Assembly (NCBI GenBank): GCA_963542015.1
Contig: CAUTUX010000007.1
Coordinates: 3,339-67,338 of the forward strand
Length of the DNA: 64,000 nucleotides
Direction of reading: 5' to 3'
Source of the DNA: an uncultured Clostridia bacterium
GTDB lineage: Bacteria > Bacillota > Clostridia > Christensenellales > CAG-917
The notes beneath the pieces are model-generated. The model made no database searches, was not told where the DNA came from, and worked only from the letters and a program-made list of their open reading frames with translations. The stretch's first letter is position 1. The number at the start of each line of letters is the position of its first letter. Both the position numbers and the translations under genes were made by a program. Below, one piece after another: positions 1,828 through 58,426 of this stretch.

Positions 1828-3024
1828 CTATTTTTTAATTATATCATCATATGCTTTTAATGCACTAGAAAATGCAATTTGTAGATTATATCCTCCAGTT
1901 AATGCATCTATATCTACTACTTCGCCTATAAAATATAAATTTTTATGCATTTTACTTTCAAAAGTTGGCAATAAATCATTTAAGTCTATACCACCCGAAG
2001 TTATAACTCCCTGATCGTTTCCAGCAAATTTTTTAAAGTGAAATTTTAAATTTTTAATATTTTTAATCAATTCTTTTCTTTCTTGTTTCGTGACGGAATT
2101 AACTTTTCTAGATGGTTCAATTGAAGATTTCTCCAATACATAATCGCTTATTCTTTCTATTAATAAGCCTCGAATACCATTTTGAATCTCTTGATTCTTT
2201 CTATTATCAAAATCAGATAATATTCTTTTTTCAAGAACAGAATTATTAAGAGCTGGCTTTAAATCAAGTAGAATCTCAAAATTTTTTTCTCTGTTTAAAT
2301 AGGCAGATAAAGTTAAAATTATTGGTCCCGACATTCCATGTTTTGTAAAGAGCATCTCTCCAAAATCAGAAAATATTATTTTGTAATTCTTTATTGCTGT
2401 AACCCGTACATTTTTTAATGAAATACCTTCAAGTGAAGATACATCTTCAACAACTTCAAGAGGAACCAATGAGGCACAAGGAGTAATGGTATTAATATTA
2501 TATCCTTTTGCTAATTTGTACCCAGAACCATCGCTTCCAGTTTTTGGATAACTAATCCCACCCGTACAAATTACTACAATGTCAACTGGCACTCTATCTT
2601 TATCCGTATCTATTATATAATTGCCAGTTATTTTAACTACTTTTTCATTCAGTCTCAAGGTTGTTTTTTTTAACTGTTTGACAAGTGTATCTACAACATC
2701 TGAAGATTTATCACTTTCTGGAAAAACCCTATTGCCTCTTTCAATTTTTAACTTAAGACCAAGATTTGAAAAATATTCAAAAACAAACTTAGGAGTATAT
2801 TTGTAAATAGATGATTTAAAAAAATTTTTCCCTCTAACTACATTATTTAAAAACTCTTCTGGATCAGTGTAATTTAATAAATTACATCTACCCTTTCCTG
2901 TTATCAGCAACTTGCGACCAAGTTTGTTATTCCTCTCAAAAAGGATAACTTCATGATTACTTTTTTCTAACAGTGTTGCTAAAAACAATCCCGACGCACC
3001 ACCGCCGATAATTCCAACTTTCAT
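1828..3024 (-). CDS. NAD(P)/FAD-dependent oxidoreductase, HI0933/BaiN family
   Basis: 398 aa. N-terminal dinucleotide fold VGIIGGGASGLFLA, GKGRCN motif, C-terminal GEVVDIDALTGGYNLQ typical of the HI0933-like family. Confidence 0.8.
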   Translation of the reverse strand: MKVGIIGGGASGLFLATLLEKSNHEVILFERNNKLGRKLLITGKGRCNLLNYTDPEEFLNNVVRGKNFFKSSIYKYTPKFVFEYFSNLGLKLKIERGNRVFPESDKSSDVVDTLVKQLKKTTLRLNEKVVKITGNYIIDTDKDRVPVDIVVICTGGISYPKTGSDGSGYKLAKGYNINTITPCASLVPLEVVEDVSSLEGISLKNVRVTAIKNYKIIFSDFGEMLFTKHGMSGPIILTLSAYLNREKNFEILLDLKPALNNSVLEKRILSDFDNRKNQEIQNGIRGLLIERISDYVLEKSSIEPSRKVNSVTKQERKELIKNIKNLKFHFKKFAGNDQGVITSGGIDLNDLLPTFESKMHKNLYFIGEVVDIDALTGGYNLQIAFSSALKAYDDIIKK

Positions 3025-4509: not shown

Positions 4510-5238
4510 TTACTTATATATACCGATGTTATCGCCGTCATTTAAGAAATCAGGAAGTTCATCAGCATTTATTTCCATGTCTTCTTTAATTTCTACTTTC
4601 TTAGATGTCTTTGGCTCAGATTCTTGTTCTCCAGAGGTTTCTACTTCTTCTTCATCTTTCATTGTTTTCTCAACAAATAACTCTTCAGAAATAGGGTTAT
4701 ATATTGCAAATGTTTTTTCTAAAACTTCTTCGTAATCTGGTAAATCTTCAATCTTATTCAAATTAAATTTCTTTAAGAAATTATCAGTTGTACTATACAA
4801 ATATGGCCTACCAACAGCATCTTTTCTTCCACTTATTTCAATTAAATTAAATTTAACTAAAGTTGATACAGCATAATCAGAATCTGCACCACCTCTTATT
4901 TCGTCAATTTCTGCTTTAGTAATTGGCTGTCTGTATGCAATAACTCCAAGAACTTCAAGAACTTTGCTTGTTAAATCTTTTTCTCTTAATTCTGTTAATA
5001 CTTCAGTGACGATATCACCGTACTTTTCATTGCTAGCAAATTGATATTTTTTATTGAATTCTAATAATAGAATACCGTTATCACCAGAATAAGTTTCCTT
5101 TAAACTTGCTATTATTTCTTTTAATTCTGCAAGACTTAACTCTGGTAACTTCTCTAAAATATAACTTTGTGCAATAGGGTTTCCTGCTGCAAAAATAATT
5201 GAAGCAATAACTTGCTTATAATCCCGCATTGACGACAT
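4510..5238 (-). CDS. scpB: segregation and condensation protein B
   Basis: 242 aa. ScpB-like winged-helix N-terminus with an acidic C-terminal tail. Sits directly downstream of scpA. Confidence 0.85.
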   Translation of the reverse strand: MSSMRDYKQVIASIIFAAGNPIAQSYILEKLPELSLAELKEIIASLKETYSGDNGILLLEFNKKYQFASNEKYGDIVTEVLTELREKDLTSKVLEVLGVIAYRQPITKAEIDEIRGGADSDYAVSTLVKFNLIEISGRKDAVGRPYLYSTTDNFLKKFNLNKIEDLPDYEEVLEKTFAIYNPISEELFVEKTMKDEEEVETSGEQESEPKTSKKVEIKEDMEINADELPDFLNDGDNIGIYK

Positions 5239-8141: not shown

Positions 8142-9560
8142 TTATTTAATATTTTTATTTTTAATTAAATTTCTAGCCATGTGAACGCCCATACACGATG
8201 CCATCATAAGTCCTCTAGTCCATCCACTACTATCACCCAAACAATATAATCCTTTAATTGAAGTTTTTAGATCCTTATCCATCTTGATTTTATTGCTATA
8301 AAATTTAAGTTCTGGCGAATATAACAATGTTTCATACCCTGCAAATCCAGGAACTATATAATCTACTGCTTTAATAAAGTTGATAATATTCAACATTGCC
8401 CTATACGGCATCCCAGCAGTTATATCACCAGCTACAGCGTCTGGAAGCGTAGGTCTAACATTAGACATAGATAATTCTTTTTGCCATGTTCTCTTTCCTG
8501 ATAAAATATCCCCATATCTTTGAACTAAAATATGTCCCGCTCCCAACATGTTTGTGAGCTCACCTACTTTTCTTGCATATTCTATTGGCTGATTGAATGG
8601 TTCTGTGAAGGAATGTGAACAAAGTATAGCCATATTAGTATTGTTGCTTTTTGTATTCTTATAACTATGACCGTTAACAACAGCAAGATCATTATCGTAA
8701 TTTTCTTGTGAAACAAATCCTCCCGGATTCTGACAGAAAATTCTTACTTTATTTTTAAATGGATCTGGGTAACCAATTAATTTAGATTCATAAAGAATTT
8801 CATTAATTTCATCCATTACTTCATTCCTAACTTCAACTCTTACACCAATATCAACAACTCCAGGTCCATGATCAATACCATGTTCCACACATAGCCTTTC
8901 CAACCAGTCGGCACCTCTTCTACCTGTTGCTATTACTATATGCTCAGCTTCTATTGTCCCGAGATCTTTTCCTCTTGAATCTTGAATGTACACACCTTTA
9001 CATATAGAATTTTCTAGAATAATGTTTGAACATTGAGTATCAAACATTATTTCAACACCATTTGATAATAAATATTTTTCAATACTTAGATAAAGGTCAT
9101 GAGCCAATTCAGTACCCAAATGTCTGATAGGACAATCAATTAACTTAAGACCAGCTTTAATTGCCTTACGTCTAATTTCTTTAACTTTTTCTTCATTGCC
9201 AAGTCCTTCAATATGCTTATCTGCACCGAATTCTAAGTAAATTTTATCAGTATAATTTATGAGATCTTGGACAAAATCACCACCAAGCAAATCTGGTAAT
9301 TCACCGCCAACTTCATACGACAATGAGAGCTTGCCATCTGAAAATGCACCAGCACCAGAAAAGCCTGTCGTTATATGACAGTATGGCTTACAATTTTTAC
9401 ATTGCTTGTTGTTTTTAGGACAAAACCTTTTCTCAATTGACTTGCCTTTTTCAACAATCAATATTTTCATTTTGGATTTAAGTTTTAGTAGTTCTAATGC
9501 GGTAAATATGCCAGCTGGACCAGCTCCGACAATACATACATCAACTTTATTTTTTGTCAT
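8142..9560 (-). CDS. FAD-dependent protein (COG2509-like oxidoreductase)
   Basis: 472 aa. VCIVGAGPAGIF dinucleotide fold and a Cys-rich stretch FCPKNNKQCKNCKPYC. Confidence 0.7.
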   Translation of the reverse strand: MTKNKVDVCIVGAGPAGIFTALELLKLKSKMKILIVEKGKSIEKRFCPKNNKQCKNCKPYCHITTGFSGAGAFSDGKLSLSYEVGGELPDLLGGDFVQDLINYTDKIYLEFGADKHIEGLGNEEKVKEIRRKAIKAGLKLIDCPIRHLGTELAHDLYLSIEKYLLSNGVEIMFDTQCSNIILENSICKGVYIQDSRGKDLGTIEAEHIVIATGRRGADWLERLCVEHGIDHGPGVVDIGVRVEVRNEVMDEINEILYESKLIGYPDPFKNKVRIFCQNPGGFVSQENYDNDLAVVNGHSYKNTKSNNTNMAILCSHSFTEPFNQPIEYARKVGELTNMLGAGHILVQRYGDILSGKRTWQKELSMSNVRPTLPDAVAGDITAGMPYRAMLNIINFIKAVDYIVPGFAGYETLLYSPELKFYSNKIKMDKDLKTSIKGLYCLGDSSGWTRGLMMASCMGVHMARNLIKNKNIK

Positions 9561-10015
9561 TCTTCTTTATCCCTCATGTTAACTTCTTTCACAAAACTTT
9601 CTACATCCTGGAACTGTTTATACACAGATGCATATCTTATATAAGCTACCCCATCTGTCTTTCTTAACCCTTCCATTACAAACTCTCCAATCTGTCTTGA
9701 TTGAATCTCATGCCCATTACATTCGTTTGCGACTTTCTTCTCAATATCTTTAATTAGTTCGTCAATCTTTGATATTGGAATCTTGCACTTCTCACAAGCT
9801 TTCATTATACCAACTCTAACCTTATTTATGTCAAAAACTTGTCTACTTCCATCTGTTTTAACAACATATACTGGCGTGCTTTCAATGGTTTCATATGTGG
9901 TGAATCTTTCCCCACAATTAATACATTCTCTTCTTCTTCTAATTGAGAGACCATCTTCACTTTGGCGTGAATCAAGAACTTTACTCTCCATTGAACCACA
10001 ATTTTTACACTTCAT
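9557..10015 (-). CDS. nrdR: transcriptional repressor NrdR
   Basis: 152 aa. Zinc ribbon MKCKNCGS...CINCGERFTTYE followed by an ATP-cone. Confidence 0.95.
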   Translation of the reverse strand: MKCKNCGSMESKVLDSRQSEDGLSIRRRRECINCGERFTTYETIESTPVYVVKTDGSRQVFDINKVRVGIMKACEKCKIPISKIDELIKDIEKKVANECNGHEIQSRQIGEFVMEGLRKTDGVAYIRYASVYKQFQDVESFVKEVNMRDKEE

Positions 10016-10026
10016 ATTTTACTTCC

Positions 10027-11430
10027 TTATTTATTCTTTCTAAACTTCTTAAAAAATTCAGGAACTTTATTTCTTGCTGAAACTCGAGATGCATTTACTA
10101 CAGTTTCATTTTCAACTGGTCTTGGTTGGTATATTTGTGGCTGAGGCTGTACAGGTTGCTCAGGCTGAGGTGTAGGCTGAAAACTTGCCGTGGCAGTCAT
10201 TGGTCTTTGAGTAGCGAAAGCAGATGTCGAATTATTATTCAAAGAACTTTGCATACTCGCCAACGCACTATCATATTGTTTGTCCAACTCTTTTTTAGTG
10301 TTAACCGAAACGCTTGCATTCTTAGCAAATTTATCAGTGAAACCAGTGGCAATAATTGTAATCTCAATATCAGTCATTCCAGGCTCTAAACCTGTTCCAA
10401 CGATCATATTAACCTTATCGTCAGCCACTTCCTTAATAATTGAACATGCACTTTCAACTTCGCTAAGCATCATATCTTCTCCACCTTTGATATTAACTAT
10501 AATACCTGTAGCACCTTCAATATCCGTCTCAAGTAATGGGCTGTATACGGCACCTTTAACAGCTGAAAGAATACGATTTTCTCCCTTACCTTTACCCATA
10601 CCCATATGTGCTAAACCTTTATTGAGAAGTATTGTTCTAACATCGGCAAAATCTAAATTTATAAGTGAATGGTTTGCGATAACATCTGTTACACCTTGGA
10701 CAGCTTGTCTCAAAACATCATCGGCAATTTCAAATGCTCTCTTGAATGAAACATTTGCATTTAATACTTCGAGCAACTTCTGATTTGGAATAACCAATAA
10801 AGTATCAACAAACTTGCTTAAGTTTCTAATTCCAATTTCAGCATTACGCATTCTGATTACGCCTTCAAAATCAAATGGTTTTGTTACAACAGCTACTGTT
10901 AAGATCCCCATCTCTTTTGCAACTTTAGCTATAATAGGTGCAGCACCAGTTCCTGTTCCACCTCCCATTCCAGCTGTTATAAAAAGAAGGTCAGTATCTT
11001 CAAGGGTTTCTCTGATTTTATCAATAGACTCTTCAGCAGAAGCTCTTCCAACCTCAGGATTTGCACCAGCTCCCAATCCACCAGTTTTCATTTCACCAAT
11101 TTGAACCCTGGATGAAGGTTCGACCAATGATTTTGACAATGCTTGCATATCGGTGTTCATAACAACAAAGTGAGCACTTTCAATACCAGCACGAATCATA
11201 TTATCAACAGCGTTGTTACCACCGCCACCTATTCCAACAACTACTATCTTAGCTTCACCAATTTTCTTATATGAAACTTCTTCAGCATTTGACGGAATAA
11301 TATATGATTCGAATTCATCTTCAGAATCATCAATATTTTGTTCTTCAACTACTTTTGGCTCTTCTTTTTCAAATTCTTCACTTGGATTTTCACCAACTTT
11401 ACCTAATCCTAATTTCTCAAAATCTAACAT
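10027..11430 (-). CDS. ftsZ: cell division protein FtsZ (with a roughly 60-aa acidic N-terminal extension)
   Basis: VGIGGGGNNAV and GGGTGTGAAP tubulin signatures, and a C-terminal peptide VPEFFKKFRK. I place the start at ATG 11430, preceded by AAGAGGTG. The track start at 11436 is a GTG lying inside the SD. Confidence 0.95.
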   Translation of the reverse strand: MLDFEKLGLGKVGENPSEEFEKEEPKVVEEQNIDDSEDEFESYIIPSNAEEVSYKKIGEAKIVVVGIGGGGNNAVDNMIRAGIESAHFVVMNTDMQALSKSLVEPSSRVQIGEMKTGGLGAGANPEVGRASAEESIDKIRETLEDTDLLFITAGMGGGTGTGAAPIIAKVAKEMGILTVAVVTKPFDFEGVIRMRNAEIGIRNLSKFVDTLLVIPNQKLLEVLNANVSFKRAFEIADDVLRQAVQGVTDVIANHSLINLDFADVRTILLNKGLAHMGMGKGKGENRILSAVKGAVYSPLLETDIEGATGIIVNIKGGEDMMLSEVESACSIIKEVADDKVNMIVGTGLEPGMTDIEITIIATGFTDKFAKNASVSVNTKKELDKQYDSALASMQSSLNNNSTSAFATQRPMTATASFQPTPQPEQPVQPQPQIYQPRPVENETVVNASRVSARNKVPEFFKKFRKNK

Positions 11431-11439
11431 ATTCACCTC

Positions 11440-12564
11440 TTAATAATATGTAATCCGTTTATTGTAGTAGCCATTGATTAACTGCATCAATGAAGCTATA
11501 TTTACCTTTGAAAGCTCTCTAAACTTAGGAAAGTTTGAAGATATCAATTCAACATTCTTCCCTATTTTGTCTTCTAAAATTCGATTAATTCCTCTTATAC
11601 CTGAAAGTCCATATCCTGTTAGATATATAGGACTGTATTCTGGAACTTTTTCTAAATTATATCCAATTACTTCTTTTATTAAATCGAATATTAAATCTAT
11701 TCTTGATTTAACAATTTGATACAAATAATATGTATCAATTTCATAACCCTTAAATACTTCAACTCCTATCTCTGCATAATTCATAGTGAAGTCCATGCTG
11801 TATAAAAATTCTTCTAAAGTATCAAACGGCAAATCAACCAGCTCATACATGTCAGCTACAATGTCAGCTGCACCTGTAGAAATTGATTTCATATCAAGTA
11901 TCCCTTCTCCCTTACCAAGGATTACTGATGTAGACAAATAACCAATATCAATCATAATATAAGGCACTGTGCGTCTATTATCATCCAACAAGGACATCCC
12001 TTGAGCCCAAGCTGTAGAAATGAATTTGATTAATTTAAATTTAAATCTCTTTAAAATTACAAGCATCACATTTACATACTTGTCTTCAGCAAATATATAT
12101 GTAACCTTGCCTTGAATCTTCGATGCCTTCTTACCCCTAACATCATAAAATGATTCATTTGATTTATCAGTCTTTATCTCAATCAACGACTTGTTAATGC
12201 AAGTATATCCCTTTGATTTAAAGGTGTTTCCTTTCTGAATCAAAAATTTAATGTCATCATCAACGACTTCTCTTTCTCTTCCGAAACTAACATTAACTGT
12301 TGACTTCCTTGAAGAACAAAATTCGGTTGGAACACTAATATAAACTTCTCTAGGTAATTTTTTTGTGAGACTCTTTAATGTTTCTAATATAGTTATAATT
12401 GTATCACTTACCTCAGTTACATTTAAGAAATCCCCTTCGCAAAATCCAGAATAATTTTTGTGAATTTCATTTTTTACACTAAAAATGCCAGCACTCTTTT
12501 TTGTGCCTACTAAACCTGTTATTTTTCTTGAATCCACATCAATTATAAGGATATCTCTTTGCAT
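11440..12564 (-). CDS. ftsA: FtsA-like actin-fold cell division protein (divergent, short)
   Basis: 374 aa. Sits immediately upstream of ftsZ. Actin-fold phosphate motifs IIDVDSRKITGLVG and MIDIGYLSTSV. Shorter than typical FtsA. Confidence 0.65.
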   Translation of the reverse strand: MQRDILIIDVDSRKITGLVGTKKSAGIFSVKNEIHKNYSGFCEGDFLNVTEVSDTIITILETLKSLTKKLPREVYISVPTEFCSSRKSTVNVSFGREREVVDDDIKFLIQKGNTFKSKGYTCINKSLIEIKTDKSNESFYDVRGKKASKIQGKVTYIFAEDKYVNVMLVILKRFKFKLIKFISTAWAQGMSLLDDNRRTVPYIMIDIGYLSTSVILGKGEGILDMKSISTGAADIVADMYELVDLPFDTLEEFLYSMDFTMNYAEIGVEVFKGYEIDTYYLYQIVKSRIDLIFDLIKEVIGYNLEKVPEYSPIYLTGYGLSGIRGINRILEDKIGKNVELISSNFPKFRELSKVNIASLMQLINGYYNKRITYY

Positions 12565-12565
12565 A

Positions 12566-13156
12566 CTATCTTCCAGCTCCTATTGCTATTCTTATATCTG
12601 ATGTGTCGCAAACCTTCAAAGCCTCTTGTAAATCTTTAATTTCATCTTCTTCAAAACTCATGTTCTCATTACCGTTATTAATGAACAATAATTCAACTCC
12701 ATTTGCCTCACACAGAGAAAAAACTATTTCCGCACCATATCTCAACAACCTGTCTTTATGAGTTAATATGAGGCGCTTAACTTTGCCCTGTGCAATATAA
12801 GCACAAAGTTCCTTAAGACCTTTCTTGTAGAAATTAAGCCCACTCCCAACTTCCTGAATCAATTTGTAATCATAACCTTGCTGAGCACAATACTTATTTA
12901 GAACTTCAATTTGTCTGGCTAAATCAACAATTTGATTTTTATTTGCCACTCTTGCATATGCTATTGTTAAACGATTTTCATTATTTGAATAACTATTTCT
13001 TTTAAATATTGAAAGAGTCTCATAGCTGTATCTACGAGCTCCACCTTGGGTCTTTTTATCTGGAACCAACTGACCAGACTTATCCCAATTTCTTAATGTC
13101 TGTATTGAAACACCTAAAATTTCAGCTGTCTGACCAATCGTTAAATACCTGTTCAT
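12566..13156 (-). CDS. IS607-type MerR-HTH + serine-recombinase-domain protein with the nucleophile Ser replaced by Ala (probably domesticated and non-catalytic)
   Basis: 196 aa. MerR-like HTH TIGQTAEILGVSIQTLRNWDKSGQL. Resolvase-domain motifs YARVANKNQ, EVGSGLNF and KDRLLRYG. Ala71 (GCA, 12944-12946) sits where YARVS carries the catalytic Ser. The TAG stop is 1 nt before the ftsA ATG. Confidence 0.8.
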   Translation of the reverse strand: MNRYLTIGQTAEILGVSIQTLRNWDKSGQLVPDKKTQGGARRYSYETLSIFKRNSYSNNENRLTIAYARVANKNQIVDLARQIEVLNKYCAQQGYDYKLIQEVGSGLNFYKKGLKELCAYIAQGKVKRLILTHKDRLLRYGAEIVFSLCEANGVELLFINNGNENMSFEEDEIKDLQEALKVCDTSDIRIAIGAGR

Positions 13157-13162
13157 GCTATA

Positions 13163-13191
13163 AGTATAAACAATTGGAAGTTTGATGTAAA
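13163..13191 (-). promoter_or_regulatory. sigma70-type promoter TTTACA-17-TATACT, leaderless configuration, for the recombinase-like/ftsA/ftsZ unit
   Basis: -35 at 13191..13186 and -10 at 13168..13163, then 6 nt (tatagc) to ATG 13156. No SD-like purine run. Confidence 0.5.
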
Positions 13192-13202
13192 GTATTTTCT
13201 AT

Positions 13203-13229
13203 AAAAAACAACAAAATTTGTTGTTTTTT
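13203..13229. terminator. AT-rich palindromic hairpin between the 154-aa gene and the recombinase-like gene (weak or partial terminator)
   Basis: AAAAAACAACA-aaatt-TGTTGTTTTTT. It is symmetric, so it folds on either strand. It separates the mraZ-rsmH unit from the ftsA-ftsZ unit. Confidence 0.3.
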
Positions 13230-13236
13230 ATATGTT

Positions 13237-13701
13237 TTATTTGTTGATTACTTTTTCTAATGAAATTTGTTTGATAGAACTTATTGGAGTTTTTACTCTT
13301 CCAGCATTTATAGCTTTATAATTTCCAAGTATTAAACCCAATACTAAAACTACGAAACTTACATATCCTGTTACTAAAAGTTTTGCTTTCCAATTTAACT
13401 TTGCTTTTTTCTTAGCTCTTTTATTTGTTTCTTCTCTGATTTGTTCTGCTAATGCAACTTCTTGCATTTGAGCAACTGCAGTAGCGTCTTCATATGTATC
13501 GGCGGATAAGTCAGAAGTTGCAGCTTTATTTGATGTGGTTTCTGTTTCAGTACTAGTATTTTGAATTCCTGAACCAAAAAATGGTCTTTGTACTGTTTGA
13601 AATCCTACATTGGTACCGGTATATTCTTCAAATGTAGGAAAAGCACTCATCATTGTGTCTGTCTTTTCTCTTACTAATTCTTCTGTTGCTACTGCCATCA
13701 T
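13237..13701 (-). CDS. hypothetical single-pass membrane protein (position of FtsL/DivIC-type genes)
   Basis: 154 aa. Acidic/Thr-rich N-terminal part, a basic stretch KRAKKKAKLNWK, then TM helix LLVTGYVSFVVLVLGLILG and a roughly 27-aa tail. Confidence 0.55.
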   Translation of the reverse strand: MMAVATEELVREKTDTMMSAFPTFEEYTGTNVGFQTVQRPFFGSGIQNTSTETETTSNKAATSDLSADTYEDATAVAQMQEVALAEQIREETNKRAKKKAKLNWKAKLLVTGYVSFVVLVLGLILGNYKAINAGRVKTPISSIKQISLEKVINK

Positions 13702-13712
13702 ATACCTCCCCT

Positions 13713-13967
13713 TTATGCAACAATCAAATCTGATTGACTGTTAGAACAAATTGCATTTTGATTATCACTGCTTGTTAAATCTATAAAGCTACACAAGTTT
13801 GAAATCATACAATTAATTGAATCCATTTCTCTTTCTACTTCAGAACAACTGGCGAATATGTCATCTTCAAGTCTTTCAATACTTATTACATTTCCCTGTT
13901 GCGTAACTACTAAATCTTCTGTAGTTAAATCAAACAATGTTCTTGGTTGTACCGCTGTTGCTATCAT
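13713..13967 (-). CDS. hypothetical small acidic protein
   Basis: 84 aa. ATGA overlap with the rsmH stop suggests translational coupling. No recognisable motif. Confidence 0.45.
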   Translation of the reverse strand: MIATAVQPRTLFDLTTEDLVVTQQGNVISIERLEDDIFASCSEVEREMDSINCMISNLCSFIDLTSSDNQNAICSNSQSDLIVA

Positions 13968-14905
13968 GACTCTATTCTCCTTTTTTCTATTATTCTCAGT
14001 TTTGCTGATTGAGACCTTTTATTCTCTAACAACTCGCTCTGAGTAGCTAATATTGGTTTCTTGTTTATTAGTTTTATAATTTCTTTTTTTCCACACACAC
14101 ATTTAGGTAATTCTTTTGGACATGTACAACCTTGACTGTATTCAACAAATTTCGATTTGACTATTCTATCTTCCAAAGAATGGAATGTTATTACCGCCAT
14201 TCTGCCAGACGGTTTTAGAAGAGATATTGCATCATCTATAAATGAATCTAAATCTTCTAACTCACCATTAACTGCTATTCTTATTGCTTGGAAAGCCTTT
14301 TTGGCTGGATGAGAACCTGTGTGTAAAAATTTTTCCGGATAAGACATCTTAATTATGTCTACAAACTGGGTCGTACTTACAATCGCATTTTTCTTTCTTT
14401 CGTTTACGATATTTTTCGCAATTTTATACCAATTTTGCTCCTCTCCATAGTCTCTTAATATTTTCCCTATTTGTTGCTCTGAATATGTGTTTAATATTGT
14501 ATATGCTGTTAACTCTTGATTTCTGTTCATTCTCATGTCAAGGTTTGCATCTTTCATGTAGCTGAATCCTCTTTCTGGATTATCTAATTGGTATGAAGAA
14601 ACTCCTAAATCAGCCAAAATTCCATCAACTTGTTCAATCTTTAAATCTGCGAGGATTTGTTTTAAATTTTTAAAATCACTGTTGATATATGTAATATTTG
14701 AAAATCTTTTAAGCCTTTCTTTACTATGGTTTATTGCCTCAATGTCTTTATCAATACAAATTAATTTACTATTCGTAATCCTGTTACAAATCTCTTCAGA
14801 ATGACCGCCACCACCTAATGTGCAATCAACATAAACACCGTTATTTTTAATGTTAAGTCCGTCTATGCATTCGGACAACAAAACCGGTTTATGGTTAAAT
14901 TCCAT
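13964..14905 (-). CDS. rsmH: 16S rRNA (cytosine1402-N4)-methyltransferase
   Basis: 313 aa. HKPVLL and DCTLGGGGHS SAM-binding motifs. Downstream of mraZ. Confidence 0.95.
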   Translation of the reverse strand: MEFNHKPVLLSECIDGLNIKNNGVYVDCTLGGGGHSEEICNRITNSKLICIDKDIEAINHSKERLKRFSNITYINSDFKNLKQILADLKIEQVDGILADLGVSSYQLDNPERGFSYMKDANLDMRMNRNQELTAYTILNTYSEQQIGKILRDYGEEQNWYKIAKNIVNERKKNAIVSTTQFVDIIKMSYPEKFLHTGSHPAKKAFQAIRIAVNGELEDLDSFIDDAISLLKPSGRMAVITFHSLEDRIVKSKFVEYSQGCTCPKELPKCVCGKKEIIKLINKKPILATQSELLENKRSQSAKLRIIEKRRIES

Positions 14906-15354
14906 TACTTACCTAAATTTTCAAGTTTCCTTAGGACCTCAGCAAAGTTGTTAGCCTTACTTATTCCTTCATCTATCTTATTTCTATCATCTTCAGACCA
15001 TATTTCTATGTAATCGCCCATTCCAATGGTAGAAATGTTTTTTTTGATATTTGCTAAATTAACCAAATTTATATCAAGTGTCACTCTTCCTTGATTGTCA
15101 ATTTCAACTTGTTGGCTGTTAGACATGATAAATGTTCTAACATCAGCCAATTCACTGTTCCCATAGAATCCAACATCCAATTGACTAATAAGTGCATCAA
15201 ATTTATCTTCTGTGAGTATATATAAGCATTTCAATTCTCTGCCAGGACAAATATATAAAGGTTCATTTTCACTAAAAAAAGGTTTGAATTTTGTAGGTAC
15301 TCTGAATCTGTTTCTTTCATCCAGTTGATGACTGGATTTCCCTATTACTTTCAC
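14905..15354 (-). CDS. mraZ: division/cell wall cluster transcriptional regulator MraZ
   Basis: 149 aa. Two SpoVT/AbrB-like repeats with DERNRFRVP and DNQGRVTL (DxxxR motifs). GTG start preceded by AAGGAG. Confidence 0.9.
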   Translation of the reverse strand: MKVIGKSSHQLDERNRFRVPTKFKPFFSENEPLYICPGRELKCLYILTEDKFDALISQLDVGFYGNSELADVRTFIMSNSQQVEIDNQGRVTLDINLVNLANIKKNISTIGMGDYIEIWSEDDRNKIDEGISKANNFAEVLRKLENLGK

Positions 15355-21519: not shown

Positions 21520-21596
<77 letters not shown>

Positions 21597-31132: not shown

Positions 31133-31206
31133 GGCACTATAGCCAAGTGGTAAGGCAAGGGTCTGCAAAATCCTCATCTCCAGTTCAAATCTGGATGGTG
31201 CCTCCA
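31133..31206 (+). tRNA. tRNA-Cys (GCA)
   Basis: Acceptor GGCACTA/TGGTGCC, anticodon loop CTGCAAA, T-loop AGTTCAAATCT, encoded CCA. Confidence 0.9.
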
Positions 31207-31214
31207 AACAACAT

Positions 31215-31301
31215 GCCGCTGTGATGGAATAGGTAGACGTAAGGGACTTAAAATCCCTCGGTGGCAACACCGTGCCAGTTCGAGTCTGGCCAGCGGCACC
31301 A
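31215..31301 (+). tRNA. tRNA-Leu (TAA)
   Basis: 87 nt, type II with a long variable arm. Anticodon loop CTTAAAA, T-loop AGTTCGAGTCT, encoded CCA. Confidence 0.9.
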
Positions 31302-31318: not shown

Positions 31319-33361
31319 CTAAACTTCTTTTGATTCCTTAATAATTTTATCATTTAGATTTTGCGGTACTTCTTCGTATCGTACAAAACGCATTTCAAAA
31401 GATCCTCTACCCTGCGTCATACTTCTTAAATCGGTTGCATATCTAAACATTTCAGCATGAGGAACTTCTATTATTATTTCTTGTTTACCGTTAAGTGACT
31501 GTGTTCCTAATATTCTTCCTCTACGCTTATTTATGTCTCCCAAGATTGTTCCTAAGAAATCATCAGGAACTGTTATCTTAGCTTCCATTATTGGTTCAAG
31601 GAAGCATGGAGATGCTTTAACACAAGCTTCTTGATATGCAAGCTTTGCAGCACTTATAAAGGCAACTTCTTTACTATCTACTGGATGTTCTTTCCCATCA
31701 AATAATGTAGCTTTTATATTGATCATTGGATACCCCGCAAGAACACCCTTCTTTATTGCCTCTCTCAATCCTTTTTCTGTTGCTGCAACAAATGGTTTTG
31801 ATACTGCTCCGCCCACAATTTTATCGACAAATTCAAATTCTCCATCCGCCGCACCTGGTTCAAATTTAATTTGTACGACTCCATACTGTCCAGCACCACC
31901 AGATTGTTTTTTATGTTTACCTTCTGCAGATACTTCTTTACGTATAGTTTCTCTATATGCAACTTTTGGCAATTCATACTGTATTGCAATATTGCTCTTC
32001 TTTTTTACTCTGTTACACATTATATCAAGTTGTGTTTCTCCAAGACCGCTAATTAAAACTTGCCCAGTGTCGTTATTCTTTTCAACTTTAAATGTTGGAT
32101 CCTCTTCTTGCATTTTAATTAACATCTGTATGCCCTTCTCTTCATCTTTAGTTGCAGATACCGCATATGAAATTACAGGTTTTGGGAATGTTATTGGTGG
32201 AATAAGGACAGGATGTTTTGGATCACACAAAGTATCATTAAGTTTTGTATGGGCAAGTTTTGCCAAAGCTCCAATGTCGCCAGCCATTAACTCATCAACA
32301 ACTTCTTGTTTTTTCCCTTTTAAAATGTATAAAGTGCCAACTTTTTCTGTGGCATTATTTTTACTTGCGTTTATTACAGTGTCTCCACTTTTAATTTTTC
32401 CAGAAAGAACTTTAAATATGAGGAGATTGCCTACATAAGGATCCACCACAGATTTAAACACATGTCCAACAAATGGATTTGTTGCTACACATGGAATCTC
32501 AACACCTTCAACTGTCATAACAGGTGGGGTCTTCATACTTGCTGGTGGCAATATGTCCACTATTCTATCTAATAACCGATTAATTGAAATTAATTTAAGT
32601 GCACTACCAACAAAAATAGGCTTAAGTGTTTTTGCTATTATGCTCTTTCTCATTCCAAAATCTAATTCTTCATTTGTGAATGCTTCTCCAGCAAAATATT
32701 TTTCCATCATCTCTTCAGTTGTTTCAGCAACACATTCAGTTATCTTTGTACGATATTTTTTAGACATTTCTTTAAGTTCATTTGGAACTTCAATTTCAGT
32801 CTTATCATCATTTGCATATCCTTTATCCGCTATGATGTTGTAATATCCAATCATTTCTCCATTTTTTATGATTGGAAGTTCAACTGGAACTGTGTTTTTA
32901 TATTTCGACATAATGTCATCAACTGTATTGAAATAATCTGCATTTTCTTTATCTATACCATTCACGAAAACTACAACTGGTAAATTCCTTTTTTTACATA
33001 ACGATAAAGACTTGTCAGTCCCTACACTCATCGAACCTGATGCGGATGTAACTACGATTGCACTACCAGCTACAGTGAGTGCAGAATATACTTCACCCTC
33101 AAAATCAAAGAAGCCTGGAGTATCGATTATATTGATTTTTGTTCCTTTGTGTATTGCATAACCAATCGATAGGTTAATTGAAATTTTACGTTTAATTTCT
33201 TCGTCATCATAATCAAGATGGGCATTACCATCATCAACCTTACCAAACCTTTCAATGCTGCCAGCGGTATACATCATTGCTTCTGCAAGCGATGTTTTAC
33301 CTTCTCCAGAATGTCCAATCAAAGCAATGTTTCTAATATTTTCAGTCTTAAAAATTTCCAT
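31319..33361 (-). CDS. elongation factor G paralogue (EF-G2-like; degenerate GTPase motifs)
   Basis: 680 aa from ATG 33361 (SD GAGGGG). The track start at 33376 is a TTG. G1 GHSGEGKTS; G3 reads DTPGFFDF instead of DTPGHVDF; G4 reads NGID instead of NKxD. EF-G domains II-V are recognisable (e.g. YRETI, GAGQYG). Confidence 0.8.
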   Translation of the reverse strand: MEIFKTENIRNIALIGHSGEGKTSLAEAMMYTAGSIERFGKVDDGNAHLDYDDEEIKRKISINLSIGYAIHKGTKINIIDTPGFFDFEGEVYSALTVAGSAIVVTSASGSMSVGTDKSLSLCKKRNLPVVVFVNGIDKENADYFNTVDDIMSKYKNTVPVELPIIKNGEMIGYYNIIADKGYANDDKTEIEVPNELKEMSKKYRTKITECVAETTEEMMEKYFAGEAFTNEELDFGMRKSIIAKTLKPIFVGSALKLISINRLLDRIVDILPPASMKTPPVMTVEGVEIPCVATNPFVGHVFKSVVDPYVGNLLIFKVLSGKIKSGDTVINASKNNATEKVGTLYILKGKKQEVVDELMAGDIGALAKLAHTKLNDTLCDPKHPVLIPPITFPKPVISYAVSATKDEEKGIQMLIKMQEEDPTFKVEKNNDTGQVLISGLGETQLDIMCNRVKKKSNIAIQYELPKVAYRETIRKEVSAEGKHKKQSGGAGQYGVVQIKFEPGAADGEFEFVDKIVGGAVSKPFVAATEKGLREAIKKGVLAGYPMINIKATLFDGKEHPVDSKEVAFISAAKLAYQEACVKASPCFLEPIMEAKITVPDDFLGTILGDINKRRGRILGTQSLNGKQEIIIEVPHAEMFRYATDLRSMTQGRGSFEMRFVRYEEVPQNLNDKIIKESKEV

Positions 33362-33538
33362 TTTATTTCCCCTCAAACAAATATAAATAATTATAAAATA
33401 ACGACATTACCCATTCAATATTGCTATTTTTCTCAATTTGCTGTATCATTTATTTACTCAATTTTGCGAATTAATAATTCAAAAAAAGATAAATTCAACA
33501 AAACAAATGAAAATTTAATTATTATTCAAGAGGTATTT

Positions 33539-35080
33539 ATGTCAAATGATGCTAATGTTGCAACCGCTTTATCTAATATAGCTGCTTTATTGTCATACGC
33601 TGAAAAAAAATTATACATGCCATTCGCAGATAAGGTTTACATACAAAATCAAATTTTTGATTTACTAAAAATTGAAGGTATGTTGCCATCTGAATTTGAA
33701 GAAAAGGATGTTTATCAAATAACCACTGAACTATTTGCGTTTGCTGTTTCAAAAGGAATTTATGAATTGGCAGATCAAGGATTATTTTTATCTAAAATTT
33801 GCGGAATGATTACTCCTATGCCCTCAAAGATTATAGAGATATTTGATGATATTGCTGCAACATCTAATTCCGAAAAAGCATGCAAATTTCTATATGAACT
33901 ATCGCAGAACAATACATATTTAAATATGCCTAAAATTAATAGGAATATTGTGTGGGAGTATAAAAATGATGTTGGAAATATACTTATTTCCATAAATCTT
34001 GCTAAACCAGAAAAGACCCCAGCTGAAGTAGCTAGAGCAAAATTAATCACATCGTCATACCCACTCTGTCCTCTTTGCTATGAAAATCTTGGTTTCGCAG
34101 GAAATAGTGCAAAACCTGGAAGACAAAATTTGAGATCTATTCCAATTTTTCTAAATGACGAAGAATGGCTCTTCCAATATTCGCCATATGTATATTTCAC
34201 TGAACATTTAATAGCATTTTCAAAAGAACATCGTCCTATGAATATAGACAAAACTACATTTCTTAGGTTACTAGATTTCGTTAAACTATTTCCACATTAT
34301 TTCATTGGATCAAATGCAGCGTTGCCTATTGTTGGAGGCTCTATATTGGCACACGAACATTATCAAGGAGGTGCCAAAGTTTTACCTATTTTTAAGCAAA
34401 AAGGGAAAAACTTCTTTACATCTTCAAAGTATCCAAATGTTAACATCTCTATTGTTAATTGGCACAATTCGGTTATACGCTTATCAAGCAAAGATACTGC
34501 ACAACTTCTTTCAGCTGTTGAAGATTTCTATACTGCTTGGAATGATTATAAGAATGAAGAACTTGAAATAATCCCATTTACAATGAATGATGACGAAAAG
34601 GTACCTCACAATGCGGTTAACCCTATATGCTTAAAAAATGATGATGATGAATATGAGTTCTTATTAATCTTAAGAAATAACAGAACAAATGATAAGTATA
34701 AATTTGGAATATTCCATCCGCACGAATCCCTTCACAATATCAAACAAGAGGCTATTGGACTTATAGAGGCTCAAGGATTATTTATATTGCCTGGAAGACT
34801 TAACTTTGAGCTTAATGAAATAAAAGATCTACTCACTTCGTCTAAAAAACTAGATTTCAAAAAATTGGCTGATGAAAAGGATCCACTACATAAGCATTTG
34901 TCTGTAATAGCTCAACTCGCTCAAAATCACGGCACACAATTAAGTACTGAAGAAGCTGGTGAAATTATTACCAACTATGTGAACGAAGCATGTAAAAAGA
35001 TTCTTGAAACAACTGCTGTGTTTAAGAAAGATGAAAAATCACAAAGTGAATTTGTTAAGTTTATAGAAAGTGTAATCTAA
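33539..35080 (+). CDS. galT: UDP-glucose--hexose-1-phosphate uridylyltransferase, type 2 (long Firmicutes form)
   Basis: 513 aa from ATG 33539, with AAGAGG 5 nt upstream. LAHEHYQGG histidine motif. The upstream in-frame part of the 620-aa track ORF overlaps the EF-G-like gene and is rejected. Confidence 0.85.
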   Translation: MSNDANVATALSNIAALLSYAEKKLYMPFADKVYIQNQIFDLLKIEGMLPSEFEEKDVYQITTELFAFAVSKGIYELADQGLFLSKICGMITPMPSKIIEIFDDIAATSNSEKACKFLYELSQNNTYLNMPKINRNIVWEYKNDVGNILISINLAKPEKTPAEVARAKLITSSYPLCPLCYENLGFAGNSAKPGRQNLRSIPIFLNDEEWLFQYSPYVYFTEHLIAFSKEHRPMNIDKTTFLRLLDFVKLFPHYFIGSNAALPIVGGSILAHEHYQGGAKVLPIFKQKGKNFFTSSKYPNVNISIVNWHNSVIRLSSKDTAQLLSAVEDFYTAWNDYKNEELEIIPFTMNDDEKVPHNAVNPICLKNDDDEYEFLLILRNNRTNDKYKFGIFHPHESLHNIKQEAIGLIEAQGLFILPGRLNFELNEIKDLLTSSKKLDFKKLADEKDPLHKHLSVIAQLAQNHGTQLSTEEAGEIITNYVNEACKKILETTAVFKKDEKSQSEFVKFIESVI

Positions 35081-48052: not shown

Positions 48053-48137
<85 letters not shown>

Positions 48138-48140
48138 AAC

Positions 48141-48216
48141 TGGAGCTGGTGATCGGAATCGAACCAACAACCTGCTGATTACAAATCAGCTGCTCTGCCA
48201 ATTGAGCTACACCAGC
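48141..48216 (-). tRNA. tRNA-Thr (TGT)
   Basis: GCTGGTGTAGCTCAATTGGCAGAGC..., anticodon loop TTTGTAA, encoded CCA. Confidence 0.9.
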
Positions 48217-48229
48217 ATATATATTTATA

Positions 48230-48305
48230 TGGTGCCTCGAGACGGACTCGAACCATCGACACAAGGATTTTCAGTCCTATGCTCTACCAACTGAGCTACC
48301 GAGGC
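48230..48305 (-). tRNA. tRNA-Phe (GAA)
   Basis: GCCTCGGTAGCTCAGTTGGTAGAGC..., anticodon loop CTGAAAA, encoded CCA. Confidence 0.9.
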
Positions 48306-48311
48306 AAGCAT

Positions 48312-48388
48312 TGGCGACTCTGAGGGGGCTCGAACCCCTGACCTCCAGCGTGACAGGCTGGCGTACTAACCAACTGTACTACAGAGCC
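48312..48388 (-). tRNA. tRNA-Asp (GTC)
   Basis: GGCTCTGTAGTACAGTTGGTTAGTAC..., anticodon loop CTGTCAC, encoded CCA. Confidence 0.9.
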
Positions 48389-48399
48389 AAAAAATTTCA

Positions 48400-48476
48400 T
48401 GGTGGGCCTTCACGGACTCGAACCGCGGACCAATCGGTTATGAGCCGACCGCTCTAACCAACTGAGCTAAAGGCCC
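48400..48476 (-). tRNA. tRNA with CAT anticodon (elongator Met or lysidine-modified Ile2; not an initiator)
   Basis: GGGCCTTTAGCTCAGTTGGTTAGAGC..., anticodon loop CTCATAA, fully paired 1:72. It resembles Bacillus tRNA-Ile2(CAU), but sequence alone cannot decide. Confidence 0.85.
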
Positions 48477-48484
48477 TGAAATTT

Positions 48485-48561
<77 letters not shown>

Positions 48562-52850: not shown

Positions 52851-55800
52851 TTATGTCTCCCATTTTGGATATAGCGTACGGTCTTGTCCATCGTACAACC
52901 TATAATAAGCATATTCTTCAGGTACACTAATAGGATCATTTGGATCTGAATAGGAACTAGTCTCACCAAAATAAAATTTGTATTCACTACTACCTTGTTT
53001 ATAATACCATCCATCAAATTCTTTTCCATTTTTTGGACCTAATTTTGGTTCATCCTCTTGCTGTAAATAATCACCTATTTTATACTCTAGTACAGCAGGA
53101 TTAGAACCTATAACCCTGTGTCTTGTATTAGGAATTTCTCCCGTATAACCACTATTAGTCATATTTAAAGTTAATCTTCCTCTTTTTAACTTATGATATG
53201 TGACTTTTATATCTTCTGATATGAAGGGTTTTATCGTATACTCAAAATCTTTATCTACCTTTTTCCCATCTACTTCAATGTCAACGCCACCTGACTCATC
53301 AAAGGCATTGTCACCCACAGCATGGAGTCCATAATATGGAGGGCTATAATACTCTTCACTAAGGTTACTAAGAAATGAAGTATACTTATAATTACTCATT
53401 AATTCTCTAATCTTAACCTTGTCTCCTTCAGTGTAATTTCTATCTAGGTTTACGGTACTGTAACTTACTATTCTATTAGTACCCACATCACTATCCTCTC
53501 CATATACAGATATTTCTTTATGTATAAAACGTGTATAATCGTATGTAGTATACAAATTAACCAATGAATATTTTGTATTAGATTCAAATTCATATTCGAA
53601 AAATTTAGAATTTATCATAGAATCATCGCTAGGTCCATCTGCTTTACTTATAGCTTCCTTACGAAAATATTTTGGATAGTAGTTTTCTATCTCATTAGGG
53701 TCTGTAGTCCAATATTTAAAGAATGACCAGTTGCTAAATTCAAACTCTCCATCGCTCTTTTTATATCTACCGTAGTCTGGAGCATACACTTTTGTATAAG
53801 ACTGCCCATATTTATATATTTTATACAATATACTCGCTTCACCTGTATTAGCAATTTCATATGTCCAGGCATAATTATATTTGAATTTAACAAGTTTGCG
53901 ATAGACATCATATTTAAATAATAAATTTGTTTCTGAAAACATTAATTCGCCCGTATTATTTTTAAGCTTTACTTGTTCTTTTCTAAATGGATCTTTTTCA
54001 TTAATCAAATTAAATGTTGAATCAATTAATGCTGAATTATCAATTACCATGCCATCCTGTCCGTCAAACGGGATTTTAACAATGGCAATCTTAAATTTAT
54101 TTGAACCAACAACATAACCTTCACTAATACCATCCGTAAATGTTGACGGATCCTCTTCTGGTTTGCCTTCGGATGTTTCAAACATTGTCTCAGCATATAC
54201 CTCTGTTTCTATAGCATTCCATCTCGAATACAATTTTAAACTTTCATCAAAATATAGTTCATCATTCAATTTAAATTCTGCAAAATCAAGTACTTTGTTA
54301 TCATTTGCTTTTAAACTCCACCCTCTAAATGTAGATTTAAAGTGTTGATTTGTAACGGGGTGTTTACTATTAAGTGTAAAATTTGAAGGTCTCAAACTAG
54401 CATCTAATTTTTGACCGAATATTGTTGCAAATGTAGTTGGTAAGGTTGCTGTGCCTTCTGATGCTTTTGCATTTATCGGTGTGACTGTTCCTCTCAATCT
54501 TGAAAAATAGAACTTTAATACCTTTGTCGTTTTTCCCTTTGCCCTATACTTGAACTCTCCACCTTCTTCATTTATATCCCCATCTTTCAGTGTCTTTGTT
54601 TTATCAAATTTAAACCCTATAAAATTAACTCCAGCTACTGGATTCCCTGATTTCTTAGTGTAAGGTGTTAGGTCAATAGCAGTACCTGCCTTAAATTTTC
54701 CATTTATAGGACCTTCAATAGACTTTTCACTTTTTTCAGAATGCCCATCTGCTTGTGTTTCTTCAGCATTTAAATCTTCCGTATATATCTGAGCATTTAC
54801 TTCAATAAGTCTCTTACTGAAATACATATTAACTTCTTTTGAACTCTTATTCTCCACTTTAAATATATACTTGTTGTCTGCGTTCTTTGTAACTCCAACT
54901 TTTGTTGTCTCTTCAGAATTAAATTCGTATACTTCGTCATCAATTTCAGTTATTGTATTTCCAGTTGTCTTTGTATATTCCGTTACATCAATCTCTTCTC
55001 CCGCCTTATATTCCTTATCCAATTCTTTAGAACCAGCTTTCTCATAGTTGCCGTTGTTTTCTTTATAAACATTAACCGTTACCTTCGTCTTTTGTCTGCT
55101 GAAGTATACTTTTGCCGTTACACTCTTCTCTGTCACCTTATACTCAAACTTCCCTGCGTTCTCAGTTAAATTCGCATCTTCAAGAGTTTTTTCCTTATTA
55201 AAATCATACTTATCAAATTCAGCTGTGAATGGATTCCCAACTGTCTTTGTGTAGTTGGTGATATCAGCAACATCTTCTAAATTCCACTTTTCCCCTGTTG
55301 CCTTTTCAAGTTGGGCTGTATGAACTTCTTCATATTCTCCATCAAGTTTTTCAAATAATAACTTTATGTTTACATCTATCTTAGTTATATCTTCACTAAC
55401 AACTGCTTTTAGAACTAATGTCTCACTATCAAGATACTTTTCATTGAATATAAACTCACCACTTTGAACTTTTGTTCCTTTAAATTTGCCTTCTTGAATT
55501 TCCCAATGTGAGAAATCTTTTCCGCTTGTTGTCTTATCCAATGCTGGTAGATTAATTTTGTCTCCAAATTTATATATTTTATTCAACCCTAATCTGGCAT
55601 AGTCAGCAGTTTCAAGCTCTGCTCCATTTTCACTTTGAAGTGTTAAAGTCTTTTCTTTTCGTATGTACTTGAATGTGATTTTGTATTCTTTTGTCTTTGT
55701 GATTTCTATTTCATTATCAATAACAGGATTCATACCAATAAATGTGCCCTCTAACTCATACCCTACATTTGTCTCATCTTTTGTCTTACTTGGTCTGAAT

Positions 55801-56915: not shown

Positions 56916-56925
56916 TTTGATCCTC

Positions 56926-58371: not shown

Positions 58372-58426
58372 TATTTCCTCCATATATGTTTATAAATCGG
58401 TACCTGCTTAGAAATACCTCAAGATA

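Follow-up and report, generated by a model that had tools for sequence, protein, structure and literature searches.

The locus

The window analysed here is a 64,000-nucleotide stretch of contig CAUTUX010000007.1 from an uncultured Clostridia bacterium. Directly upstream of its ftsA-ftsZ division genes lies a gene for a protein related to TnpA, the transposase of IS607-family insertion sequences (IS). The original prediction read this tnpA-like gene as a transposase that had lost its catalytic serine and had been exapted and fixed at the head of ftsA-ftsZ; synteny, the ratio of nonsynonymous to synonymous substitution rates (dN/dS, or omega), single copy number and the state of the nucleophile column, all of them sequence evidence, argue for that reading. 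The features on which the analysis turns are the following.

10027..11436, minus strand: ftsZ (Pfam).
11440..12564, minus strand: divergent ftsA-like gene, 374 aa (Pfam/NCBIfam, protein search).
12562..12580, minus strand: junction GGAGCTGGAAGATAGTATG, comprising the tnpA-like TAG, 1 nt and the ftsA ATG; the ribosome-binding site (RBS) is in the tnpA-like tail (translational coupling).
12566..13156, minus strand: tnpA-like coding sequence, 196 aa, a domesticated IS607-family TnpA homologue (family profiles, fold, omega).
12569..12670, minus strand: degenerate, shortened helix-E region and tail, residues 163-196 (predicted local distance difference test score, pLDDT, <50; 4/31 conserved columns; omega 0.2-0.3).
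12671..12970, minus strand: core of serine-recombinase catalytic fold, residues 63-162 (R69, D135, R136 and R139 kept; nucleophile gone).
12944..12946, minus strand: codon 71, GCA = Ala, the nucleophile column (plus strand reads tgc; PDB alignment and codon comparison).
13010..13147, minus strand: N-terminal MerR-type winged helix-turn-helix (HTH) DNA-binding domain, residues 4-49 (Pfam; 26/31 canonical columns kept).
13163..13191, minus strand: promoter, -35 TTTACA, 17-nt spacer, -10 TATACT, 6 nt to the ATG (leaderless; geometry as in all clade loci and in the canonical left end).
13200..13232, no strand assigned: palindrome TATAAA-N21-TTTATA(G), candidate operator and/or weak AU-only terminator, between the orf154 stop and the -35.
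13237..13701, minus strand: orf154, a native membrane protein gene of the division and cell wall (dcw) cluster (homologous to the outgroup 251-aa protein after rsmH, E 7e-11).

The tnpA-like stop codon (TAG, 12566-12568) is separated by a single nucleotide from the ftsA-like ATG (12562-12564), and a GGAG within the last tnpA-like codons supplies the Shine-Dalgarno sequence of ftsA, just as had been read at the outset. The ftsA RBS lies inside the last tnpA-like codons in all lineages that carry the gene.

Family membership and fold

The protein is a member of the IS607 TnpA family by both sequence and fold. It scores 155.8 bits against the NCBIfam equivalog model NF033518, 'IS607 family transposase', the cutoff of which is 110, and Pfam places a MerR match at residues 6-43 (E 1.8e-12) and a Resolvase match at residues 65-168 (E 3.9e-15), so that the IS607-type architecture first proposed for it holds. 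The catalytic part was aligned by phmmer with the IS607-family structures 3LHK, 3LHF, 3ILX, 6DGC and 6DGB of the PDB. The AlphaFold2 model (mean pLDDT 67) has a confident b1-aA-b2-aB-b3-aD-b4 core, residues 163-196 falling below 50, and its top Foldseek matches in the PDB are 3LHK, 6DGC and 3ILX, with a root-mean-square deviation of ~2 A across ~100 residues. The recognition-helix sequence, IQTLRNWDK, is the same in the tnpA-like protein and in canonical IS607 TnpA.

Among 5.8 billion proteins, four short close relatives of 193-196 aa were found (P0001, P0002, P0003 and P0004, with 97%, 67%, 66% and 61% identity, respectively), below which there is a step to hundreds of canonical TnpA proteins of 211-212 aa and ~55% identity. 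In the same set, no more than six relatives of the neighbouring FtsA-like protein occur. The nearest canonical relative, P0017, belongs to a mobile element that combines tnpA (212 aa) with tnpB (316 aa) and occurs in five different genomic contexts.

The nucleophile column and the transposition machinery

In the phmmer alignment, Y67-A-R-V-A71 of the tnpA-like protein falls on the Y-A-R-V-S of 3LHK, 3LHF and 3ILX, which confirms the assignment of the GCA codon to the position of the nucleophilic serine. A sequencing error at codon 71 is ruled out, and the Ala is genuine: identical or near-identical Ala-type proteins are encoded on more than 150 independent contigs, P0127 alone accounting for 127. 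A second candidate, another conserved Ser acting as nucleophile, was also rejected: the next column is N/S and no Ser near the loop is invariant.

The residue in this column is fixed inside each population and differs among lineages. Ala is found in all eight listed variants of the 196-aa type and Ser in all six of the 195-aa type; the codon is GCA (Ala) in the window, L001 and L044, TCA (Ser) in L012, GGC (Gly) in L002 and CCA (Pro) in L003 and L005. The P0004 cluster has Pro in 11 of 11 members, together with GSG changed to GGG and DRLLR to DRLLK. Conservation of the Ala, which the original prediction proposed to examine, thus holds within the window species and breaks down across lineages. 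Because the column reads A/S/G/P under otherwise tight constraint, the nucleophile Ser is evidently dispensable, not specifically replaced by Ala.

The losses extend beyond the nucleophile. The S-S-x-D-Q active-site loop, which 44 canonical sequences share at 98-100% conservation, varies throughout the clade and reads A-N-K-N-Q in the window protein and S-N-K-N-Q in the Ser type. The C-terminal region has a 6-residue deletion (IITVFS) and ends ~15 residues before the canonical terminus, helix E being truncated in every clade member. Among columns with a conservation of 90% or more in canonical TnpA, 26 of 31 persist across the clade in the HTH, 45 of 83 in the core and only 4 of 31 in the C-terminal region. 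Neither mark of an active enzyme is present in the window protein: the Ser of Y-x-R-V-S with an S-S-x-D-Q loop is missing, and in place of an intact split helix E there are the 6-aa deletion and a truncated, unconserved tail.

IS607-family TnpA dimerises via helices B and D, and its split helix E must remodel for the cooperative filament and the paired-end complex to form (Chen et al. 2018, PMC6188088). Deletion of helix E leaves motif binding in place ('complex 1') and abolishes cooperative assembly of the paired-end complex (PMC6188088). Given that behaviour, the clade proteins appear to have what dimeric, site-specific DNA binding needs and to be without what synapsis and chemistry need.

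It might be argued that the protein is still a recombinase in some lineages, the Ser type of L012 performing programmed rearrangement or dimer resolution, and that the Ala of the window is a recent loss. L012 is a sibling species whose protein is 96% identical to that of the window; it and six cluster members read YARVS, with TCA in the context AGA GTA TCA found in the mobile relative, and R69, D135, R136 and R139 are kept. The L012 Ser could be an ancestral retention or a reversion, since Ser-first and Ala-first histories each take ~5 nucleotide changes when the canonical TCA outgroup is included. Against a surviving recombinase, however, the column is fixed as Pro in two of the three deeper lineages, as Gly in the third and as Ala in the window species, with purifying selection equally strong in all of them; the loop is degenerate even in the Ser type, the truncation of helix E is shared by all members, and neither a right end nor a second site turned up. 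I regard this alternative as very unlikely.

Taken alone, the absence of the Ser is not unusual. The nucleophile column is without Ser in 26 of 143 (18%) 50%-identity representatives of IS607 TnpA-like proteins (P0152-P0297) and in 5 of 116 close canonical homologues. The P0153 cluster (Arg, nine members; L045 2879-3541, L046 1226-1888) consists of solo genes without tnpB at a fixed site in an unrelated context, with FAD-protein, LysR and ABC-transporter genes as neighbours. TnpA homologues that are dead or no longer mobile may be a broader phenomenon that has gone unstudied. P0092, P0093, P0103 (Campylobacter jejuni/Helicobacter pylori), P0080 and P0082 are canonical TnpA proteins of full length in which Gly, Asn or Tyr stands at the nucleophile position and the S-H-D-Q loop and helix E are intact; these are probably recently inactivated IS copies.

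A fixed position in the dcw cluster

The gene occupies a common slot in eight loci of five species-level lineages, at identities down to 61%. These loci (L001, L002, L003, L004, L005, L011, L012 and L044) share the order mraZ-rsmH-orf84-orf154-(tnpA-like)-ftsA-ftsZ-nrdR-FAD protein as far as each contig extends, and the position is thus conserved in all five lineages. The gene between rsmH and orf154, orf84 (13713-13967, minus strand), is shared by the clade, its L002 counterpart being 46% identical (E 1e-19); it is without family match, and no outgroup counterpart was noted.

A scan of 185,579 species genomes returned L012 as its sole clade member, a metagenome-assembled genome (MAG) labelled 'uncultured Clostridia bacterium' whose FtsA is 95% identical, and 26 outgroup loci of ~35% identity from Christensenellales-type MAGs. 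A metagenome scan for further lineages added one extra contig only, of the same species. The tnpA-like gene is absent from all 26 outgroup loci, where the order is rsmH-251aa-PBP-murE-mraY-murD-ftsW-murA-ftsA-ftsZ-spoIIGA-sigE-sigG...nrdR (PBP, penicillin-binding protein). Since orf154 is homologous to the outgroup 251-aa protein, the tnpA-like gene sits exactly where the outgroup has the peptidoglycan block PBP-murE-mraY-murD-ftsW-murA, and orf154 marks the upstream edge of the putative ancestral insertion/deletion. The dcw region of the clade (window 9557-15354, compared with L006, L009 and L013-L038) is reduced relative to its nearest relatives. Because both PBP-to-murA and spoIIGA-sigE-sigG are missing from the clade dcw cluster, the comparison suggests a genome-reduced, non-sporulating and possibly wall-less lineage of Clostridia.

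The tnpA-like gene does not behave like part of a mobile element. The claim that the gene has no tnpB partner stood up to tblastn with canonical TnpB at E up to 10, which returned no remnant in the window or in the clade loci, and no second tnpA-like copy exists in the 64-kb window. An IS607 right end was not found there, so that the two ends with phased repeats and terminal GG of a mobile element are not both present; nor are multiple copies or variable positions seen, the gene being present once in the 64 kb and at a constant position in the eight loci. At the level of comparative sequence, these data show that the gene is not a recent insertion and has been vertically inherited at a fixed position.

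Purifying selection

Selection was assessed by Nei-Gojobori estimates of dN/dS, and the tnpA-like gene proved comparable to ftsA (omega 0.019-0.13 versus 0.013-0.11). Between the window and L012, dS is 0.78 and dN 0.015 (omega 0.019; ftsA 0.038), and between the window and L001, dS is 0.166 and dN 0.011 (omega 0.065; ftsA 0.013). The values for L003 versus L005 are dS 1.39, dN 0.100 and omega 0.07, and those for L002 versus L003 are dS 1.68, dN 0.157 and omega 0.09. Across the deep lineages dN amounts to 0.26-0.30 for the tnpA-like gene and 0.25-0.26 for ftsA (0.30 and 0.26 from the window to L002), an equality that is expected under vertical co-inheritance.

The constraint is unevenly spread over the protein. 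Omega is 0.00-0.09 in the HTH, where the window and L012 differ by 0 nonsynonymous and 13 synonymous changes, 0.02-0.08 in the core fold and 0.2-0.7 in the linker and tail. No frameshift or stop occurs in ~40 sequences of the gene. Domain-resolved purifying selection of this kind rules out a decaying remnant, and the gene combines the marks of domestication: it no longer moves, it has been passed on vertically at an orthologous locus, and purifying selection acts on it.

The simplest reading to set against domestication is that of an ordinary, recently inserted and decaying IS607 copy, or of an assembly or sequencing artefact at codon 71. Nucleophile-less homologues are, as described above, not rare (26/143; 5/116), and solo immobilised copies are known elsewhere. 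A recent insertion would not, however, share its position across lineages with saturated dS and be missing from the outgroup, and an artefact or a decaying gene is at odds with the >150 contigs that carry the Ala and with the intact reading frame of the ~40 sequences. This explanation is barely credible.

The promoter and the left end of the element

The TnpA-binding motifs used for comparison were taken from the ends of the canonical P0017 element. Its right end carries four TTTATA(G) repeats at an exact 10-bp spacing and terminates in GG; its left end consists of three TATAAA repeats at 10-bp spacing, followed by TTTATA-N8-TTGACA-17-TATAAT-7 nt-ATG. The canonical tnpA mRNA is predicted to be leaderless because the -10 TATAAT lies only 7 nt before the ATG. 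In copies of the canonical element (L039-L043), repeats are located at about 2895-3003 and 4925-4980, the left flank of L041 being different or shorter.

The tnpA-like gene has, as had been claimed, its own near-consensus promoter, TTTACA-17-TATACT at 13191-13163. Upstream of the gene, every clade locus reads TATAAA-N12/21-TTTATA(G)-N8/10-TTTACA-17-TATACT or TAATAT-6 nt-ATG, with the TnpA-type motifs conserved 8-10 nt upstream of the -35. When the 79 nt upstream of each gene were scored against the canonical left end, the five clade loci gave 26, 23, 17, 15 and 12, the window being lowest, in contrast to a mean of 5.0 (sd 2.6, max 13) for 56 control promoters of the window. The inner left end of the IS, with promoter and motifs, therefore survives recognisably in the clade, and the statement that the locus lacks recognisable element ends needs correcting to that extent. 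As no promoter is predicted on the coding strand within the tnpA-like open reading frame (ORF) and the ftsA RBS is in its last codons everywhere, this transposon promoter is probably the proximal promoter of ftsA-ftsZ.

The palindrome upstream of the -35 is made of motifs that match IS607 subterminal repeats. The corresponding RNA folds with -13 kcal/mol in the window and in L012 and with -6.5 to -7.2 in the others, all of them AU-rich; the folding model allows that the palindrome may double as a weak terminator of the upstream mraZ operon. Triplets of TTTATA in 10-bp phase do not occur anywhere in the 64-kb window, and the inverted motif pair is found twice in it versus 1.2 times expected.

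These arrangements invite the idea that the ORF is a mere carrier, in which the IS promoter and the act of translation serve ftsA expression by coupling while the protein sequence is functionless. The leaderless promoter directly upstream, the ftsA RBS in the last codons of all lineages and the lack of a predicted promoter inside the ORF are what such a carrier would show. Its sequence is nevertheless constrained, with an omega of 0.02-0.1 overall and 0.00-0.09 in the HTH, where all 13 differences from L012 are synonymous. Since a sequence-independent spacer would drift towards an omega of ~1, a functionless protein is extremely unlikely.

A model for the origin and role of the protein

Taken together, the observations fit the following history. 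The ancestor of this low-GC Clostridia lineage, which is small and uncultured, would have acquired an IS607-family element in its dcw cluster, immediately downstream of the gene for the membrane protein that comes after rsmH. Thereafter tnpA would have lost its 3' end, with the second half of helix E, and the element its tnpB and right end, through a deletion that probably also took PBP-murE-mraY-murD-ftsW-murA and that fused the truncated tnpA to the RBS of ftsA. A single deletion running from the tnpA 3' end to the ftsA leader is inferred as the most economical scenario, because it accounts jointly for the truncation of helix E, the absence of tnpB and right end, the RBS in the tail and the missing PBP-to-murA genes. 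What remained would be a leaderless IS left-end promoter, TnpA-binding motifs and a TnpA with a winged HTH and a dimer-forming catalytic fold, presumably no longer capable of DNA chemistry or of cooperative filament or synapse assembly.

The present protein would then be a dimeric, sequence-specific DNA-binding protein that most likely binds TATAAA/TTTATAG just upstream of its own -35 and so could feedback-regulate the tnpA*-ftsA-ftsZ transcript. Recognition of TTTATA-type motifs is predicted because IQTLRNWDK is identical in mobile relatives whose ends carry those motifs; dimerisation, binding at these motifs and autoregulation are all inferred from such comparisons. The parts of this model are not equally secure. 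That the protein is an exapted, non-catalytic DNA-binding protein is very likely. The specific role, autoregulation of the ftsAZ promoter, is a tentative assignment that I hold slightly less readily than its contrary. The whole sequence of events, from insertion through deletion to an exapted, autoregulating dimer, seems to me probable, if not strongly so.

A different role was considered for the same protein, namely that of a division-coupled chromosome-binding or DNA-bridging factor that acts with FtsA/FtsZ and is not a transcription regulator. The two HTHs of a dimer would sit on the chromosome, for example in nucleoid occlusion or in tethering through the acidic tail, and would replace functions lost in genome reduction. 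Translational coupling to ftsA and co-divergence with it fit this proposal, as does the loss of wall and sporulation genes at the locus; one TnpA dimer holds two DNAs in the eLife model (PMC6188088), and a core constrained as tightly as the HTH implies a role beyond promoter occupancy. The 64-kb window, however, contains no phased arrays or extra palindromes beyond one chance-level match, and the tail is the least constrained part of the protein. A bridging factor is unlikely, without being far-fetched.

Several points weigh against the autoregulatory model itself. DNA binding and regulation by the tnpA-like protein are deduced from sequence. The AlphaFold2 confidence is only moderate (pLDDT 67), and several helix-B positions conserved in canonical TnpA are changed, so that the dimer interface may differ. 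The TATAAA/TTTATAG motifs are short and AT-rich in a genome of 33% GC, the left-end score of the window (12) is marginal against controls that reach 13, and the palindrome could be just a weak terminator for the upstream operon. The Ser of L012 stands in a canonical codon context, and residual chemistry could conceivably persist in that lineage. Finally, the copy and binding-site counts cover 64 kb of the genome only.

A bolder version would make the dead transposase a new cell-division factor, either a DNA-anchored partner of FtsA/FtsZ or a controller of their dosage, that arose from an IS607-mediated deletion of peptidoglycan genes. I consider it decidedly unlikely. If it were true, the same deletion would also have given rise to a minimal, possibly wall-less Clostridia lineage, and the division genes would now rely on a promoter and a protein that both come from a transposon.

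The remainder of the window

Outside this locus the window is ordinary chromosome, the 20 large ORFs scanned being housekeeping genes. At E <= 1e-5, Pfam recognises nothing in two large neighbouring ORFs of the minus strand (52851-58383; 1362 aa and 485 aa). Nine tRNA genes are found at 48056-48561 (minus strand), 31133-31298 (plus strand) and 21520-21593 (plus strand), six of them in one tight cluster. The plus strand is composed of 37.7% T, 29.5% A, 19.5% C and 13.3% G (GC ~33%), and nearly all long ORFs are on the minus strand; this asymmetry and the ORF bias are consistent with a single replichore and strong gene co-orientation. An EF-G-like ORF (31319-33376, minus strand) and a GalT-like ORF (33218-35080, plus strand) overlap head-to-head by ~160 nt, and the mechanically assigned start of one or the other is probably too far upstream.

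Comparison with known systems

The closest known proteins are the IS607 TnpA transposases (Helicobacter pylori IS607, Mycobacterium tuberculosis IS1535, Sulfolobus ISC1926; 6DGB, 6DGC, 3LHK, 3ILX), with which the tnpA-like protein shares the domain order, a winged HTH followed by the serine-recombinase fold. Mobile copies from gut and Campylobacterota-type IS607 elements are 52-58% identical to it, and the recognition helix, the leaderless promoter layout and the TTTATA-type motifs are common to both. In contrast to these transposases, the clade is without the nucleophile in four of five lineages, its loop is degenerate and its helix E is shortened and unconserved; unlike IS607 elements, the locus has neither tnpB nor a right end, keeps one fixed position, is under host-gene-like selection and is coupled to ftsA.

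For the proposed autoregulation, a functional analogy may be drawn with the TnpR resolvases of Tn3/gamma-delta at res and with the beta recombinase of pSM19035, whose sites overlap their own promoters, which results in autoregulation. These proteins remain catalytically active, have the HTH at the C-terminus, in the opposite order, and dimerise via helix E.

MerR/BldC-like proteins share the MerR-type HTH (Pfam PF00376, PF13411), with weak NCBIfam matches to HspR, BldC and MerR that are all far below the cutoffs. MerR-activated promoters typically have a spacer of 19-20 nt. The tnpA-like protein has a resolvase fold in place of the C-terminal coiled-coil or effector domain of that family, and its promoter spacer is 17 nt, so that only the HTH matches a MerR-family regulator. 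MerR-type activation is ruled out by this spacer and by the missing effector domain.

YneB of Bacillus subtilis (NCBIfam NF049883) is also a resolvase-fold protein beside division-related genes; its gene probably lies in the operon of the SOS division inhibitor yneA. It differs in that the tnpA-like protein scores only 28.5 bits against a cutoff of 175, belongs to another subfamily and has homology only in the shared fold, YneB having no MerR HTH.

Few well-supported domestications of bacterial transposases are known. A full-text literature search turned up neither an account of an IS607 TnpA within a dcw cluster nor one of an IS607 TnpA domesticated in bacteria, in line with the original prediction, which was not aware of any such arrangement. 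The reach of the case is limited by a lineage that is rare and uncultured. Within it, an IS appears to have handed over its promoter, its operator-like motifs and its DNA-binding protein as one unit, now connected to ftsA-ftsZ. These are the most conserved of the division genes, and the lineage has lost its wall-synthesis and sporulation genes from this very locus. The case would offer a concrete example of a mobile element rewiring the regulation of essential genes during genome reduction, and the clade provides a natural separation-of-function series (Ser/Ala/Gly/Pro with a truncated helix E) for the non-catalytic roles of the IS607 TnpA dimer.

The nearest parallel in outcome comes from tnpB, the partner gene of tnpA, which was recently shown to yield transcription factors, the TnpB-derived, RNA-guided TldR proteins (bioRxiv 10.1101/2025.07.22.666180 / PMC13418256). 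TldR is likewise a nuclease-dead product of the IS200/IS605-IS607 element class that was repurposed as a transcription regulator of host genes. It differs in being a TnpB protein, RNA-guided, directed at flagellin and phage-borne, whereas the window protein is a TnpA for which protein-based DNA recognition is predicted. What is distinctive of the latter is its deep conservation, its host-gene-like selection and its wiring to ftsA-ftsZ via the IS's own promoter.

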